Shown here: positions 52,532 through 57,148 of the stretch, in pieces
Layout of the letters: the number at the start of each line of letters is the position of its first letter
Numbering within the stretch: position 1 is the first letter of the stretch
Assembly (NCBI GenBank): GCA_043816965.1
Contig: JBDRHK010000015.1
Coordinates: 3,548 to 67,547 of the forward strand
Length of the DNA stretch: 64,000 nucleotides
Direction of reading: 5' to 3'
From: Candidatus Iainarchaeum sp.
Lineage (GTDB): Archaea; Iainarchaeota; Iainarchaeia; Iainarchaeales; JAFCCJ01
Translations under genes and position numbers: made by a program
The notes under the pieces: model-generated
Seen by the model: the letters and a program-made list of their open reading frames with translations, nothing else
Database searches by the model: none
What the model was told of the DNA's origin: nothing

Positions 52532-53554
52532 ATGGCTGAGAAATCCAAATACCCGGATACCAATAAGATAGAGGTTCCCCGCAAGCTTATTGACCAGGTT
52601 ATCGGGCAGGAATCTTCAGTGGAGCTTATCCGGAAAGCCGCCGCGCAAAAAAGAAATGTATTGCTTGTAGGCCTCCCAGGAACTGGAAAATCAATGCTTG
52701 CCCAGGCAATGTCTGAAATTCTGCCGATTCAGCGTTTGGTGGATGTCCTAATTTACCCCAATTCCGAGGATGCCAATACCCCGAAAGTGAGGGTTATGAG
52801 GGCAGGAGAGGGGCAGAAAGTTCTCCAACGGGCAAGGCTGGATGCAAAGGGCCAGGAAGACAATATTAGGCTGATGGGCCTGCTTCTCCCTTTGGGCTGG
52901 TTTATAATAACCTGGCTGATGTATGCTGTTTTTGGCTTAATGCATGTGAATGTTTATGCCGCAAGCCTTATTTTGGGCGGATTCCTTATAGTCGCACTTG
53001 CATTAGGGAGCCAGATGAAAATAAGGCAGGGAACAACAATCCCAAAACTCCTAATTAACAATGCCGGAAAAAAGATTGCCCCTTTTATTGAGGCAACTGG
53101 TGCAAGGGCAGGTGCATTGCTAGGGGATGTAAGGCATGACCCGCTGCAATGTTTTTACGGCTTTAACGTGCTTTATTTACAAAAAGAAGATCAAAATGGA
53201 TCTGAATTTGTAGAAAAACCATTTTTAGAGCTTTGGGAAGAAATGTACGAAAAGTATGGCAAAGAAGTTATACGAAACAGTAAAGGATACGAAGCAATAA
53301 TGATTCCGCCTGAGGAAAAGATTTATACTTTGGGGCATAAAGATGGCAAGGTCATTTTATCAAGAATACTTTCCCTTAACAGACAGCCTTTTGAGGGAGA
53401 GCTTGTTGAATTAAAAGTTGGAGATAAGACAGTTTCATTGACGCCAGAGCATAAAGTAGATACTGCAAAAGGCGACAAAGAGGCAGGTCAGATTTCTGAA
53501 AGAGACGGTTTGATTAAACTGGTTAAGGTTGAACTTGCCAAGATTCTCAGTTAG
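52532..53554 (+). CDS. lonB: LonB protease N-terminal fragment (AAA+ Walker A + TM hairpin) fused to intein N-fragment
   Basis: VIGQESSVELIRKAAAQKRNVLLVGLPGTGKSMLA, two TM helices, GALLGDVRHDPLQ, then Cys207 onwards is a Hint N-region. Stop at 53552-53554. Confidence 0.85.
   Translation: MAEKSKYPDTNKIEVPRKLIDQVIGQESSVELIRKAAAQKRNVLLVGLPGTGKSMLAQAMSEILPIQRLVDVLIYPNSEDANTPKVRVMRAGEGQKVLQRARLDAKGQEDNIRLMGLLLPLGWFIITWLMYAVFGLMHVNVYAASLILGGFLIVALALGSQMKIRQGTTIPKLLINNAGKKIAPFIEATGARAGALLGDVRHDPLQCFYGFNVLYLQKEDQNGSEFVEKPFLELWEEMYEKYGKEVIRNSKGYEAIMIPPEEKIYTLGHKDGKVILSRILSLNRQPFEGELVELKVGDKTVSLTPEHKVDTAKGDKEAGQISERDGLIKLVKVELAKILS
53150..53551 (+). mobile_element. Intein N-terminal splicing fragment (IntN, 134 aa)
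   Basis: CFYGFNVLYLQ... (block A, Cys1) and VSLTPEHKV (block B TxxH). Terminated by a stop about 30 aa after block B. Confidence 0.75.
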
Positions 53555-53607
53555 AGATATGCCCTATCTTGTTGATAAGGGGCAGCCTCCAGAAAATTAA
53601 CGTTCAA

Positions 53608-54108
53608 TTAGGCTTCAACAAATTGCCCTGTTTCTAGATTTCTTTTGCATTTGTCCCAAGTATAAACTCTGCCATTCATTGCAATGTAAACGCCGTTCTC
53701 AAGGACATTTATAAGGCCAATTGCCACCCCGATATTAAATGAGGCATCTGAATTAGAGAATTTTTCTGGCCTCATAGCGCCTGTCAAAATTATAACTTTA
53801 TTAATATCGCTTAGATTTTTGGCAGTTTCAATCATTGTATCTGTTCCATGGGTAATTATAATTTTATCAGCATCTGCCTTTTGGCAAGCAGCATATATTT
53901 TCTACCTGTCTTTTTCTGTAATGTCTAGGCTATCTTTTTTGAGAACTGAGATCACTTCAAAATCAAAGCAGGGATTTACTTTTTGCAGTATTCTTGTTAC
54001 GGCAGGTTCAGCGATTTCAAAGGCATACCCATTTGTCGTTCTTGGATAGTCTTTATCAATTGTTCCCCCAGTTTGAATGAAAAATATCTTCATAGTATAA
54101 CCAAGCAA
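53608..54108 (-). pseudogene. Short L-asparaginase-family (N-domain) gene interrupted by one in-frame TAG
   Basis: MKIFFIQTGGTIDKDY (TGGTI) ...EKDR-TAG(53902-53904)-KIYAACQKADADKIIITHGTDTM (HGTDT)...ILTGAMRP. The two track ORFs (53902..54108 and 53608..53835) are in the same frame. Confidence 0.6.
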
Positions 54109-54319
54109 TAAAATAGTTTAAATAACATAGGATTCAAAGTAGGCCGTATTTTTAAAAAATTCACCACCTCCAATAGAGAATTTTTTCTAAGGACTCTGAT
54201 TTTCTCGGCTTAAACCTTTGCACGCCTGATTTCTACTTTTGGTGCAAAGGATTTAATGCCTCCAAAATCAGCAGAGACGTCCACGAAAAAATTCATTATT
54301 CTTGGAGGTGGTTTGATTG

Positions 54320-54451
54320 ATGAATTTTCAAAATATTCAACTTCCCACAAGGGGAGAGATAAGGATGGCTGAAGAACTAGCCAGGTCAAATCCGGAGAAC
54401 CTGACAGACAGGGAACTCTGGATTCTGAAAGAGACAGTGGGTGATTTCTAA
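54320..54451 (+). CDS. Small ORF (43 aa) with strong SD, translationally coupled (TAATG) to the LAGLIDADG gene
   Basis: GGAGGTG at 54304-54310, ATG at 54320. MNFQNIQLPTRGEIRMAEELARSNPENLTDRELWILKETVGDF*. The stop overlaps ATG 54451. Confidence 0.4.
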   Translation: MNFQNIQLPTRGEIRMAEELARSNPENLTDRELWILKETVGDF

Positions 54452-55527
54452 TGCTTTTCCCGCATCGGAAGCCTACTCCCAAAATAGTTTATAAGAGTGA
54501 AAAACAGAATTTTAACAGAAGGGCTATAATGTTGATCACTGAACAAGACATAATTAATACTTATTCACAAGAGGAACAATGCTCTTGTAGAAAATATGTT
54601 GAATACAAGGAACTAATGCGAGAGAATCCTTCTTTTGGTTATAAGCGTTGTGCAAAACTATTAGGCGTTTCTCAGGGCAGAGTAAGGTGGTGGCATACCA
54701 AAGGGGCAAAGAGAGCAGTTCCATTAGCCCTGAAGGCGGTTGAGAAACTTAAGAACGTTGGCATAATTCCATTTACTGAAGAGCACAAACACGCCAACGT
54801 AATTCTCAATATTTTAGGGACCCTTTTTGGAGATGGCGGAATTGACAGAAGGCTCAATACAGCGGCGTTCATCTCCTCAGACAAAAAGGATGTTGATTTA
54901 TGGAAGAAAGATTTGCTCGAGGCATTTCCCTTTGCAAAAAACAAAATGAATCTTGTAGAAGGGGGAGAGTGGGGGCATTCATATAACATTAGGACTTTTG
55001 ATAGGAGTATTATAAGATTCTTTGTTGCATTAGGAGCGCCAGTTGGGGATAAGGTTGCTATAAAATACAGTTTGCCAAACTACATTTTCAACGTATCCTA
55101 CGAACATAGGATTGCATTTTTGGATGGTATGTTAGCATCAGAGGTCTCAGTTCCGAGATTTAGGGACGATTCTTACCAGAACAAGAGATTCACAGATTTC
55201 AGTTTAAGTTTATCAAAAATTGATACATTACAAGACGAGCATAGGCTTTTTATGAGGAGTTTTGAAGATTTATTAAATTCTGTTGAAGTGGCCACAACAG
55301 GTAATCTGAGAAAAGATTTTCATCTAAAAAGAAAAAGAAAGGACGGTCATTTAAGTTCGCCTTACAGGATTTTCATTAGAACAATTTTTTGGAGAGTTTT
55401 ATATTTCAACAATTTATTTCCTTTAAGGTACTGTCATGGCAAGAAAAAACGTCTGCAAAAAGAAATTGAATTTGCAGTAAACTACAAGCAGAAATCTGTT
55501 AAACGGGGATTGGAGAAATGCCTATGA
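54451..55527 (+). mobile_element. Free-standing LAGLIDADG homing endonuclease gene with N-terminal HTH
   Basis: ILGTLFGDGGID and IAFLDGMLASEVS (two LAGLIDADG motifs). HTH-like YKRCAKLLGVSQGRVRWW. Alternative start ATG 54529. Confidence 0.7.
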
Positions 55528-55637
55528 AATCTGTTTTAAAAATACTATTGGTGTTGGCTATACTTGCTGGTTTTATTTTTTTAGCATCCTATGTATTTGG
55601 TTTTATTAATATGCTTGTTTTTTCTACAATTTTCTAA
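55524..55637 (+). CDS. Small hydrophobic peptide ORF (37 aa), ATGA-coupled to the endonuclease gene
   Basis: MKSVLKILLVLAILAGFIFLASYVFGFINMLVFSTIF*. Hand translation with no further support. Confidence 0.25.
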   Translation: MKSVLKILLVLAILAGFIFLASYVFGFINMLVFSTIF

Positions 55638-55726
55638 CTGCGGCAAATCGAGTTGTAGAAATGTAATTTTATTGTGATATCCTTGCAATGCAAGATATTT
55701 AATAATATTGTAATTATTATCTATTT

Positions 55727-55849
55727 ATGGAACATAAATCAAAAACAGAGAGGGTTTCTTCAGTATCTAAGCGGCCTTTTAGGGGTCATGTCTATAATGT
55801 TACAACTGAAACAGGCAACCTCTTTGTTGAGGATGTTCTGGTTCACAAT
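55727..55849 (+). mobile_element. Intein C-terminal splicing fragment (IntC, 41 aa; blocks F and G, His-Asn / Ser+1)
   Basis: [22 protein letters not shown] followed by Ser at 55850-55852. Confidence 0.75.
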
Positions 55850-57148
55850 TCGGGCGGGTTGGGAACACCCCCTCACTTGCGTGTTGAGCCAGGAATGGTC
55901 CACAGGGTTAATGGAGGGGTTCTCTTTTTGGATGAGATTTCCACTCTCTCCCCAAAATCCCAGCAGGAATTGCTTACAGCAATGCAGGAAAAGAAATTCT
56001 CAATTACGGGCCAAAGCGAGATGAGTTCAGGTGCAATGACAAGGACAGAGCCGGTTCCATGCGATTTTGTCCTTATTGCCGCAGGGAATTACAATGATTT
56101 GAGAAAAGTTCATCCTGCACTTAGGAGCAGGATAAGGGGCTATGGTTATGAGGTCTATATGAACCTTGAAATGGAAGACAATGAGGAGAACAGGAAAAAG
56201 ATTGTGCAGTTTATTGCGCAGGAAGTAACAAAGGATGCCAAAATCCCGCATTTCTCGGCAGATGCAATTGAGTCAATTATTTTCGAGGCAAGGAGAAGGG
56301 CAGGAAGGAAAAATAAACTCACCCTTAAGTTAAGGGATTTAGGCGGGCTGGTCAGGGCCGCAGGAGACATTGCAAAGGAAAAAGGCCATGGCCTGGTTGA
56401 CGCACAGGATGTTCTCGAGGCAAAGATGTCGGCAAGAACCCTGGAACAGCAGATGGTTAACAAAATTATTGATGAAAAGAAGGATTATGATGTTTACCTT
56501 TTTGAGGGAAGTGCCATTGGGAGGGTTAACGGCCTTGCGGTTTCAGCAGACGGGGATGCGGGGCTCATCCTGCCCATAGAGGCAGAAGTTGCCCCTGCCC
56601 AGAGCAGTGCTGAAGGCAAGCTAATTGCAACCGGAAAGCTTGGGGAGATAGCAAAGGAAGCTGTGCAGAATGTCTCCGCAATAATAAAGAAATTGAGCGG
56701 AAAAGACATTGCCAGCCATGACCTCCATATTCAGTTCCTCCAAACCTACTCAGGTGTTGAGGGCGACAGCGCGTCAGTTAGTGTTGCAACAGCGGTGATT
56801 TCCGCGCTTGAGGGAATTCCTGTAAAGCAGAGCCTTGCAATGACCGGTTCTTTAAGTGTCAGGGGAGAGGTTCTGCCAGTGGGAGGTGTTACGGCGAAAG
56901 TTTCAGCTGCAATCTTTGCTGGATTTAAGGAAGTAATTGTCCCATATGCAAATAAGGACGATATTATTCTTCACAAAGAACGCCTGGATAAAATAAAAGT
57001 AATTCCCGCAAAAAACCTTTCCGATGTCCTGGAAAATGCATTTGAAAAATCCCCTAAAAAGAAAAAGTTCATGACCTCCTTGAAAAAACTGCTTCACATC
57101 GAACTTTCAAATGTAGTGGAAAAAGTGATTCCCAAAACAGTGGCATGA
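55727..57148 (+). CDS. lonB: Intein C-fragment fused to LonB C-terminal part (Walker B, sensor regions, Lon protease domain)
   Basis: [41 protein letters not shown]|[31 protein letters not shown]...GDSASVS...GGVTAKV. Confidence 0.85.

Follow-up and report, generated by a model that had tools for sequence, protein, structure and literature searches.

A candidate natural split intein in archaeal lonB, with a free-standing LAGLIDADG endonuclease-like gene between its halves

Introduction

In cyanobacterial DnaE, the intein halves are found at distant loci, always split and without an endonuclease, with an IntC of about 36-41 aa and an IntN of about 102-123 aa. The split intein of Nanoarchaeum equitans PolB interrupts a DNA polymerase, and its halves are encoded at widely separated places in the genome, with no endonuclease gene in between. 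The locus described here is a lonB gene in the window, the whole 64,000-nucleotide stretch of Candidatus Iainarchaeum sp. DNA that was analysed. Like PolB, it would be a natural split intein of a cellular DPANN archaeon whose halves carry no endonuclease, but PolB concerns a single organism, whereas the LonB split intein forms a family with intermediates; Neq Pol is cited in PMC11766414. Like DnaE, it has the canonical split between blocks B and F (PMC4760082), and the split has likewise become fixed within a clade, where it would be needed to assemble an important enzyme. It differs from DnaE in its 134-aa IntN, which has a helical stretch inserted after block A, and in being a polymorphic cassette that close relatives may either have or lack.

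The 'fractured genes' that Dassa et al. (2009, PMC2677866) described from marine metagenomes share further features with this locus: a single gene that a split intein divides in two, halves in their original order and orientation, and an RNA hairpin upstream of the endonuclease gene. Their endonucleases, however, are GIY-YIG or Vsr-like and are thought to have invaded mini-inteins, and their hosts are DNA-metabolism genes, mainly of phage. In lonB, the endonuclease is of the LAGLIDADG type and homologous to the intein's own domain, the interrupted gene encodes a membrane protease of a cellular archaeon, a separate promoter precedes the C-terminal gene, and the gap carries unrelated cargo. Phage Aeh1 NrdA (PMC3045599) is likewise an enzyme with fragments that must reassemble, its gene being interrupted by a mobile endonuclease gene, but there assembly is non-covalent and involves no intein, whereas the lonB break is flanked by complete Hint halves with conserved splice residues. 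Finally, 10 LonB inteins were listed in Euryarchaeota by Novikova (2016; PMC4760082). The contiguous one of Thermococcales (Thermococcus nautili, WP_042693108.1) has the same insertion site (...HDPFQ/intein/SGGLGTP...), homologous Hint parts, a homologous LAGLIDADG domain and a matching unusual block F, but it is one cis-splicing polypeptide, while the version in the window is made of three separate genes.

Anatomy of the interrupted lonB gene

The original prediction was that lonB is broken exactly at an intein, and every feature on which it relied was found in place. There are two lonB ORFs, 52532..53554 (340 aa) and 55727..57148 (473 aa), each in frame 2; the first encodes LonB residues 1-206 followed by IntN, and the second IntC followed by the rest of LonB:

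52532..53149, + strand: LonB N-extein (residues 1-206), TIGR00764 E 2e-55
53150..53554, + strand: putative IntN, the N-terminal split-intein half (134 aa), with 27 distinct homologues and matches to TIGR01445 and the KlbA mini-intein
55690..55703, + strand: predicted archaeal-type promoter of the IntC-LonC gene, a BRE-like GCAAGA plus the TATA box TATTTAAT
55727..55849, + strand: putative IntC, the C-terminal split-intein half (41 codons), with 14 distinct homologues
55850..57148, + strand: LonB C-extein from Ser+1, TIGR00764 642 bits, Lon_C E 8e-33

The NCBIfam LonB model TIGR00764 is matched at positions 3-196 by residues 6-207 of the first ORF and at positions 189-607 by residues 34-453 of the second. 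The N-extein, which is colinear with the uninterrupted LonB of locus L038, carries the Walker A motif GLPGTGKS and a two-helix membrane hairpin, and it ends in ...GALLGDVRHDPLQ. The C-extein carries Walker B (VLFLDE), the AAA lid and the Ser-Lys protease domain, and is 93% identical to the intein-free LonB P0267. As predicted, Cys1 of IntN (CFYGFNV...) is Cys207, at nt 53150; block B reads TPEH, 134 codons lead to the stop TAG at 53552-53554, SGGLGTPP directly follows the 41-aa IntC, and 2,172 nt separate the halves. The claim that the joined exteins make a continuous LonB also held: they align without gaps to the intein-free LonB of T. onnurineus (3k1j/4zpx, E ~5e-60), and at 1,917 nt they are exactly as long as the lonB gene of a syntenic relative, which is uninterrupted. 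No second lonB was found within the 64-kb window.

Sequence features of the intein halves

The alignment to Hint and intein profiles that had been proposed as a check supports the homology of the joined halves to the Hint domain, including contiguous mini-inteins across the break. Joined, they score 28.6 bits against TIGR01445, above its cut-off of 24.5, and also match the NrdJ-1 split intein (2e-4) and a VMA mini-intein (1e-3). Their profile finds the KlbA mini-intein 2jmz (E 5e-8), with an alignment that spans the break, and PF14890 is matched by 13 of 13. The Pfam Intein_splicing score of 26.5 bits is under the gathering threshold of 35.8, the TIGR01443 match is weak, and the AF2 model of the joined halves (pLDDT 54.8) is unusable. 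No consistent pattern of charge complementarity between IntN and IntC was found.

The putative splice residues are retained. Position 1 is Cys in 24 of the split sequences and Ser in 3, with Thr instead in some of the two-piece and contiguous forms; neither TPEH nor the terminal Asn varies, and Ser+1 is kept. Block F is atypical, with Asn and Gly (VYN, ETGN) in place of the usual Asp and His, and some relatives have Cys, Ser or Lys instead of the penultimate His. Both replacements would suit a reading in which the halves are an association module only, holding the LonB fragments together non-covalently with the peptide bond never formed; Aeh1 NrdA, whose fragments assemble without splicing according to PMC3045599, provides a precedent, and splicing itself is deduced from sequence. 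We nevertheless consider this reading unlikely, since position 1 is only ever C, S or T, and TPEH, the terminal Asn and Ser+1 have all persisted although divergence is saturated; a pure docking module would have no need of these residues. Moreover, the same block F variant (YN..TTE.GN) is present in contiguous LonB inteins, that of T. nautili among them, where LonB could not work without cis-splicing.

The spacer and its genes

The spacer was predicted to hold a reverse-strand asparaginase-like pseudogene and a forward three-ORF cassette including a LAGLIDADG endonuclease, and all of these were recovered:

53608..54108, - strand: asparaginase N-domain-like ORF, cargo, PF00710 E 1e-23 on the joined reading
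54191..54282, + strand: long predicted hairpin upstream of the orf44-endonuclease pair, core CGGCUUAAACC...GGAUUUAAUGCC
54304..54311, + strand: Shine-Dalgarno site GGAGGTGG for orf44; 16 of 17 loci have it at constant spacing to the ATG
54320..54451, + strand: orf44, a small, conserved acidic ORF (43/44 aa; 43 when counted from the ATG at 54320) with the motif EEI..NP..L[TD]xRELWIL
54451..55527, + strand: 358-aa ORF, free-standing LAGLIDADG homing endonuclease by predicted fold and homology
55518..55637, + strand: 39-aa hydrophobic ORF, uncertain as a gene, with weak similarity in L021 (E 0.012) and L031 (E 0.47)

The asparaginase-like ORF, interrupted by a single in-frame TAG, is probably a pseudogene; TAG is a common stop in the source genome (15 of 53 long ORFs). 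It is absent from all related loci and was seen in the window only. The hairpin has a folding energy of -31.5 kcal/mol (z -4.4), and compensatory double changes affect 12 of its 18 pairs, with 94% paired, a result equalled in 0 of 500 shuffles; it matches no Rfam family. Homologues of orf44 occur in about 17 loci, where it travels with the endonuclease; it has no Pfam or PHROG match and no counterpart in the contiguous inteins.

On its AF2 model (pLDDT 92.7), the middle ORF is a LAGLIDADG-fold protein: Foldseek matches it to I-Tsp061I, I-DmoI, TliVMA and PI-SceI (prob 1.0, TMt 0.66-0.72). The conserved domain begins at Met27 (nt 54529) and contains the motifs LGTLFGDGG (D128) and AFLDGMLASE (E231). 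There are 114 free-standing homologues, and the protein would have endonuclease activity and drive homing.

Conservation of the split among relatives

The split arrangement is a widespread DPANN family. In all 31 related loci whose IntN end is readable (27 distinct IntN sequences with 54-76% IntN identity, from DPANN MAGs and metagenomes), the split is kept at the same codon positions, and the more divergent members L033 and L035 have the identical site. IntN runs for 121-138 aa before its stop, and an ATG stands 39-41 codons ahead of the junction in 15 of the 17 loci holding IntC. This ATG, predicted along with a TATA-like element upstream, has its TATA box at 55696-55703, 31 nt away, and the element is conserved: in each of the 15 distinct loci, TAT[TA]TAA begins between positions -30 and -32 relative to the IntC ATG, in spacer sequence that is otherwise unrelated among them. 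Such a spacing implies a leaderless mRNA.

Synonymous sites are saturated (pS ~0.75-0.80), and dN/dS is 0.16 for IntN, 0.10 for IntC, 0.13 for the endonuclease, 0.13 and 0.08 for the exteins and 0.22 for orf44. These values weigh on the second option of the original prediction, a recent inactivation of lonB through disruption of a normal intein, which would make the ORFs decaying pseudogene pieces. The spacer does contain the asparaginase-like pseudogene, and both lonB ORFs of the window are missing from the protein collection in which the endonuclease is present, which suggests that the depositor's pipeline called lonB a pseudogene. Yet all of these loci have the split, as do 69 of the 120 nearest LonB clusters, neither half has an in-frame stop at any locus, the intein halves and exteins have dN/dS of 0.08-0.16 despite saturated synonymous divergence, and the promoter of the IntC gene is conserved. 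Chimeric misassembly of the spacer could be suspected in a metagenome-assembled genome, but the same part order recurs in independent assemblies from many projects (NCBI, ENA, JGI, Logan), and the flanks are colinear with L038 over 20 kb. Because the split is conserved across independent assemblies, we regard both as excluded, inactivation being highly improbable and misassembly even more so.

The original prediction also pointed out that the halves share their frame phase. This is true in the window, where the spacer is a multiple of three and holds a conserved hairpin, features that would suit RNA splicing, RNA trans-splicing or ribosomal bypass joining the halves into a contiguous cis-splicing mini-intein precursor. 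Relative frames differ among related loci, however, and the shared frame is thus a coincidence. Spacers range from 281 to 4,705 nt with genes on both strands, no intron-like RNA family was found, and IntC has its own ATG and TATA at fixed spacing. IntN ends in a stop of its own, for which all three stop codons are in use, so that recoding is not involved. Joining at the RNA or ribosome level is therefore very unlikely.

Proposed assembly of LonB

The right reading is very probably a natural split intein whose three genes follow a 'fractured' layout, with LonB assembled by trans-splicing and the endonuclease as an independent gene; the conserved split, low dN/dS and splice residues all favor it. 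The first gene would produce the membrane-anchored N-terminal part of LonB fused to IntN, and the third, from its own TATA promoter and a leaderless mRNA, IntC fused to the remainder. We infer that IntN and IntC associate into one Hint domain, which would excise itself and ligate ...DPLQ to SGGLGTP..., giving the junction peptide ...HDPLQSGGLGTP... This would bring Walker A and Walker B into one chain, and so a continuous AAA+ module and an active LonB. Between the halves would lie the intein's former LAGLIDADG domain, now a separate gene preceded by the conserved hairpin, a strong Shine-Dalgarno site and the small conserved ORF.

Origin and mobility

The comparisons with known Lon inteins and with relatives that had been suggested bear out the proposal that a full intein with a disrupted endonuclease region gave rise to the split. 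At one LonB site, there are contiguous, two-piece (verified on contigs), three-piece and endonuclease-free versions, and the intein parts of the window map colinearly onto contiguous inteins at the identical site, including that of T. nautili. The LAGLIDADG type of the endonuclease and its homology to the corresponding domain in these inteins indicate that it arose by fission rather than by invasion.

The stretch that starts with the first intein codon and ends with the last (53150-55849) behaves as a mobile block that may be gained or lost as one unit, precisely at the LonB site, with a gap that would accept unrelated cargo such as the asparaginase-like pseudogene. No clear co-conversion tract marking recent homing was seen against the empty-site syntenic allele. 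In that relative (85.5% nt identity), lonB is uninterrupted, and the indel is a codon-exact block of 2,700 bp. The distribution is patchy: of the 120 nearest LonB clusters, 69 are split and 50 intact, with at least 23 changes of state.

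The two halves of LonB

The lonB gene of the window is a real natural split-intein locus, in which two open reading frames, both in frame 2, are separated by a 2,172-nt spacer that no reading frame crosses. That LonB is divided between exactly these two ORFs had been proposed in the original prediction, and the ORF limits and the matches to the archaeal LonB model TIGR00764 bear this out. The features that we will refer to are the following.

Features of the split lonB locus and its spacer
52532-53554, plus strand: ORF1, 340 aa, frame 2, LonB N-extein followed by IntN (N-terminal intein half); TIGR00764 model positions 3-196
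53608-54108, minus strand: asparaginase N-domain-like ORF, 166 codons with one in-frame TAG, between IntN and the hairpin; seen in the window only
54191-54282, plus strand: hairpin, about 92 nt long, preceding the small ORF and the endonuclease gene
54320-54451, plus strand: small acidic ORF (43 aa) with the motif EEI..NP..L[TD]xRELWIL; dN/dS 0.22; about 17 related loci
55518-55637, plus strand: hydrophobic 39-aa ORF, a doubtful gene, that overlaps the stop codon of the endonuclease; matched weakly at similar positions in two related loci, L021 and L031
55727-57148, plus strand: ORF2, 473 aa, frame 2, IntC (C-terminal intein half) followed by the LonB C-extein; TIGR00764 model positions 189-607, 642 bits

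IntN starts at Cys207 of ORF1 (nt 53150) and runs for 134 residues to a TAG stop, and IntC corresponds to the first 41 residues of ORF2, which end in ...LVHN and are followed by SGGLGTPP. A domain search also placed the LonB lid and the Lon_C protease domain in ORF2. Once joined, the exteins make up a full-length archaeal LonB (TIGR00764), with the Walker A and B motifs, the membrane hairpin and the Ser-Lys protease domain all present, and across their junction they align gaplessly with the LonB of Thermococcus onnurineus, which has no intein (3k1j/4zpx, E about 5e-60), the window reading GALLGDVRHDPLQ/SGGLGTPPH (slash, splice junction) and T. onnurineus GALLGDVRHDPFQSGGLGTPAH. The joined length is also that of an intact LonB from a related contig, so the continuity of LonB across the predicted junction is confirmed.

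An exact look-up found neither ORF1 nor ORF2 nor the neighbouring RNase Z in the protein collection, where the endonuclease of the window is present (P0004, 'MAG: hypothetical protein ABID38_01150 [Candidatus Diapherotrites archaeon]'). This suggests that the window lonB halves are annotated as a pseudogene in the public record, and halves of this kind probably receive the same label in DPANN genomes. The 64-kb window has no tRNA gene and, at gathering score, no match to an Rfam family.

Hint features of the intein halves

The first intein residue, which in the window is the class 1 nucleophile Cys207, is a Cys in 24 of the 27 distinct split homologues and a Ser in the other three, and it is a Thr in two further LonB inteins, one in two pieces (P0124) and one contiguous (P0127). 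Block B (T98-P-E-H101) does not vary in any aligned sequence. At the other end, IntC terminates in ...LVHN/S in the window and in ...LV(H/C/S)N/S across the set; the terminal Asn is invariant, and a few relatives have Cys, Ser or Lys just before it. The usual Asp and His of block F are not present (VYN...ETGN in the window vs TYD...STHN in NrdJ-1). This unusual block F is also found in contiguous LonB inteins at the same site and, because those must splice in cis, it reads as a family trait compatible with splicing rather than as decay.

A profile of 13 joined IntN and IntC sequences matched the Mja KlbA mini-intein (2jmz, E 5e-8) in an alignment that spans the break point, and also the natural split intein NrdJ-1 (8ubs, 2e-4) and a VMA mini-intein (4o1s, 1e-3). 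All 13 joined sequences match positions 14-155 of the 155 of Pfam Intein_splicing (PF14890), below its gathering score. The joined halves reach 28.6 bits with TIGR01445, above the cut-off of 24.5 (12 of the 13 members match), and match TIGR01443 weakly. Together with the 2jmz alignment, this agrees with the predicted Hint assignment, and IntN and IntC appear to be the halves of one Hint domain. An AF2 model of the joined halves, built from a shallow alignment of four sequences, had a pLDDT of 54.8 and left IntC unmodelled; charge complementarity between IntN and IntC followed no consistent pattern.

Conservation of the split state

A protein search with IntN returned three short proteins with 59-65% identity and a common end point, and their alignment, used in a further scan, led to 14 genome loci, from MAGs labelled Iainarchaeum, Diapherotrites, Micrarchaeota or 'archaeon', and to 15 metagenome loci. 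IntN stops after 121-138 residues in all 31 loci that hold its end (27 distinct sequences), with TAA, TGA and TAG all serving as the stop. In 15 of the 17 loci holding IntC, an upstream in-frame stop is followed by an ATG 39-41 codons before the junction; the version of L012 (= L026) has 69 codons. Between the intein halves lie 281 to 4,705 nt, depending on the locus, and the frame of one half relative to the other also varies.

The original prediction had left room for a recent inactivation of lonB, and a break in the gene could also come from faulty assembly. Nei-Gojobori estimates on 14-26 distinct sequences gave a dN/dS of 0.16 for IntN, 0.10 for IntC and 0.13 for the endonuclease, and of 0.13 and 0.08 for the N- and C-exteins, with synonymous sites saturated (pS about 0.75-0.80). 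Since the split is conserved in every locus that holds the end of IntN and dN/dS of the intein parts is 0.10-0.16 at such divergence, a recent lesion and an assembly artefact are both ruled out, and the split state is kept by selection. Between the divergence of the intein parts and that of the exteins, the Pearson coefficient is 0.43-0.63 at this saturation.

Trans-splicing, the other reading originally offered, is the best-supported mechanism for uniting the LonB halves, and the conserved split, the selection, the splice residues and the Hint match make it highly probable. IntN and IntC would then associate with each other and splice.

The endonuclease gene in the gap

The 358-aa ORF of the spacer gave no match to the Pfam LAGLIDADG families and none in a sequence-profile search of the PDB. 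It matches the endonuclease part of the intein-containing RtcB model NF038162 (6e-17), as well as phrog_14115, of unknown function. Its AF2 model, built with 31 homologues, has a pLDDT of 92.7, and Foldseek aligned it with I-Tsp061I (2dch, 5.7e-8), I-DmoI and the endonuclease domains of the TliVMA and PI-SceI inteins (TMt 0.66-0.72). The predicted structure is that of a LAGLIDADG fold with two pseudo-symmetric halves. Across 32 sequences, D128 of the LGTLFGDGG motif is invariant and E231 of AFLDGMLASE is kept in at least 90%. The prediction that a LAGLIDADG endonuclease forms a gene of its own between the halves is upheld by this confident model and these conserved residues, and the protein would be expected to be active as an endonuclease.

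From contiguous to split inteins at one LonB site

A word-indexed search found 114 homologues of the endonuclease, all free-standing in size and one of them the window protein itself, and a full-library profile search found relatives embedded in LonB proteins. Some of these are contiguous LonB proteins, 1,070-1,159 aa long, that carry an entire intein at this very site (P0127, P0134, P0136 and P0141, the last being the Thermococcus nautili LonB WP_042693108.1), which makes the insertion site identical to that of a catalogued Lon intein. Others are two-piece forms (P0121, P0124, P0145), in which LonN, IntN and the endonuclease are fused in one ORF and an IntC-LonC ORF lies directly 3' on the contig, after a gap of 10 nt in L036 and with an ATGA overlap and a GGAGG site in L037. 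Split forms lacking the endonuclease are found in L007/L019, L021 and L014.

The IntN, the endonuclease (from residue 26-28) and the IntC of the window correspond, in the same order, to successive stretches of the contiguous inteins. This colinear mapping, and the KlbA alignment across the break, place the split at its canonical position, between blocks B and F, where the endonuclease is inserted in full inteins. The middle gene is the intein's own LAGLIDADG domain, now separate. The comparison of relatives thus yielded both contiguous and split versions, plus two-piece and endonuclease-free forms, so that all stages from homing intein to clean split intein coexist at one LonB site. The derivation of the split from a full intein broken in its endonuclease region, as had been supposed, finds support in the colinear mapping and in these intermediates.

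Probable mobility of the intein block

The nearest relatives of the window C-extein are intein-free LonB proteins (P0267, 93% identity; P0268, 89%), and other split forms are 72-81% identical to it. L038, the contig carrying P0267, shares synteny with the window for about 20 kb, with 85.5% of the nucleotides identical, and the alignment breaks exactly at 53148 and 55850, the empty site reading ...GACCCCCTTCAG/TCCGGAGGGTTAGGAAC... in L038. With the block taken out, the window gene measures 1,917 nt, as does that of L038, and the joined LonB is 92.5% identical to the intact one. The exact break and the equal lengths thus define a codon-exact indel of 2,700 bp, which starts with the first intein codon and finishes with the last.

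Of the 120 LonB clusters nearest to that of the window, 69 carry the split and 50 are intact, and the state changes at least 23 times, against a mean of 38 with shuffled labels (an approximate count on a crude average-linkage tree). IntN similarity is also out of step with extein similarity, L018 sharing 76% identity in IntN but 55% in the N-extein. A co-conversion tract near the insertion site is not convincing, with just a slight synonymous dip relative to L038 (0.82-0.83 vs 0.858). Overall the block seems to behave as a mobile unit, and the data fit a gain in the window as well as a loss in L038. Site-specific cleavage and homing would be in keeping with the codon-exact indel relative to an empty allele and with the patchy distribution, both indirect support.

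One may go further and propose, tentatively, since we lean slightly against it, that the cassette of IntN, of the hairpin, 43-aa ORF and endonuclease, and of the promoter and IntC is an actively homing element. It would move as a block between DPANN lonB alleles, with arbitrary cargo (including a complete diversity-generating retroelement), and would be seen at every stage from contiguous to clean split, including cysteine-less pairs and a LonB with two split inteins. If this is true, one could directly observe and test how split inteins arise when a homing intein undergoes fission, and a split-intein gap could serve as a safe landing site for genes.

Signals in the spacer

In all 15 distinct loci, a TAT[TA]TAA box starts at -30 to -32 from the ATG of IntC, preceded by a GCAAC-like element, and the rest of the spacer around both is unrelated among loci. 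Such spacing is the geometry of an archaeal BRE/TATA promoter with a leaderless mRNA, so the IntC-LonC gene probably has its own promoter and is transcribed without a leader. A scan with bacterial promoter and terminator models, not relevant for an archaeon, stayed at chance level.

The hairpin has a folding energy of -31.5 kcal/mol (z -4.4), and 12 of its 18 pairs have compensatory double changes, which no shuffle or slid register comes close to. No Rfam family matches it; a role in translation control, in processing of read-through transcripts or in insulation is possible. The ribosome-binding site GGAGGTGG before the 43-aa ORF is conserved; this ORF has no counterpart in the contiguous inteins and no match in the family search.

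Relation to described systems

Natural split inteins are few. To our knowledge, the only cellular ones are those of cyanobacterial DnaE and of one archaeal protein, the N. equitans PolB, and the remaining ones belong to phage-like metagenomic DNA-metabolism genes. The host in the present case is not a replication protein but a membrane protease with a housekeeping role, and the split inteins form a large archaeal family, which counts 69 or more cluster representatives within the nearest LonB sequences. A literature search, covering part of the journals, turned up neither a split LonB intein nor any split intein from the DPANN phyla of these loci; contiguous LonB inteins are already known in Euryarchaeota (PMC4760082).

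Of the arrangements described so far, the 'fractured gene' of marine metagenomes (Dassa et al. 2009, PMC2677866) comes nearest; the window lonB shares its layout, and hairpins precede 15 of the 16 endonuclease genes in that set. Fractured genes carry GIY-YIG or Vsr-like endonucleases in phage DNA-metabolism hosts, whereas the window has a LAGLIDADG enzyme in a cellular archaeal LonB of DPANN MAGs. Unlike in fractured genes, the endonuclease comes from the intein itself, the C-terminal gene has its own promoter, the gap carries cargo and all intermediate forms are present. The coexisting intermediates and the empty-site allele in a syntenic relative make the long-debated origin of split inteins testable by comparison and experiment. 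The family may also provide new split-intein pairs, probably orthogonal.

Cargo genes and additional inteins

The asparaginase-like ORF is probably a pseudogenised cargo gene. Recoding of its TAG was rejected, because TAG, like TAA and TGA, is a common stop in the window and also ends IntN. Other loci carry different genes between the LonB halves.

Genes in the gap of related loci
L012 1913-4968 (= L026): complete diversity-generating retroelement, with an Lcl_C-type target protein, a bAvd accessory protein and a reverse transcriptase
L010 11915-12598; L014 4025-4708 and 5980-6663 (two copies); L020 4008-4691; L031 12343-13026: Zn-dependent phospholipase-C-like gene, 227 aa
L014 and L001: nucleotidyltransferase
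L031: HNH endonuclease

In two loci (L010 13032-16132, L017 11574-14640), LonB is broken a second time, at ...EPIP/C...VHN/CDFVL, by a different split intein in the two-piece form, its IntN fused to an endonuclease of its own and followed by an overlapping IntC ORF. Broken twice, this LonB is spread over four genes as three extein pieces and would need two split inteins. In L007 (6223-9195, = L019), where the first LonB site has a 281-nt spacer without the endonuclease, a further intein, this one contiguous, interrupts the IntC-LonC gene just 13 residues past the split site (...HLRVE/C...HN/CGLIHK...).

Natural split inteins with Ser1 and Ser+1 occur in L014 (3451-3855 and 7096-7218) and also in L002, L005 and L035, and the L014 pair has no cysteine anywhere; cysteine-less Ser1/Ser+1 pairs are sought for protein ligation under oxidising conditions. 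The small DPANN genomes of the split-lonB type hold several inteins. In L033 (1433-3739, minus strand), which comes from a more distant relative, the Cdc6/Orc1 gene adjoining the split lonB carries a contiguous LAGLIDADG intein.
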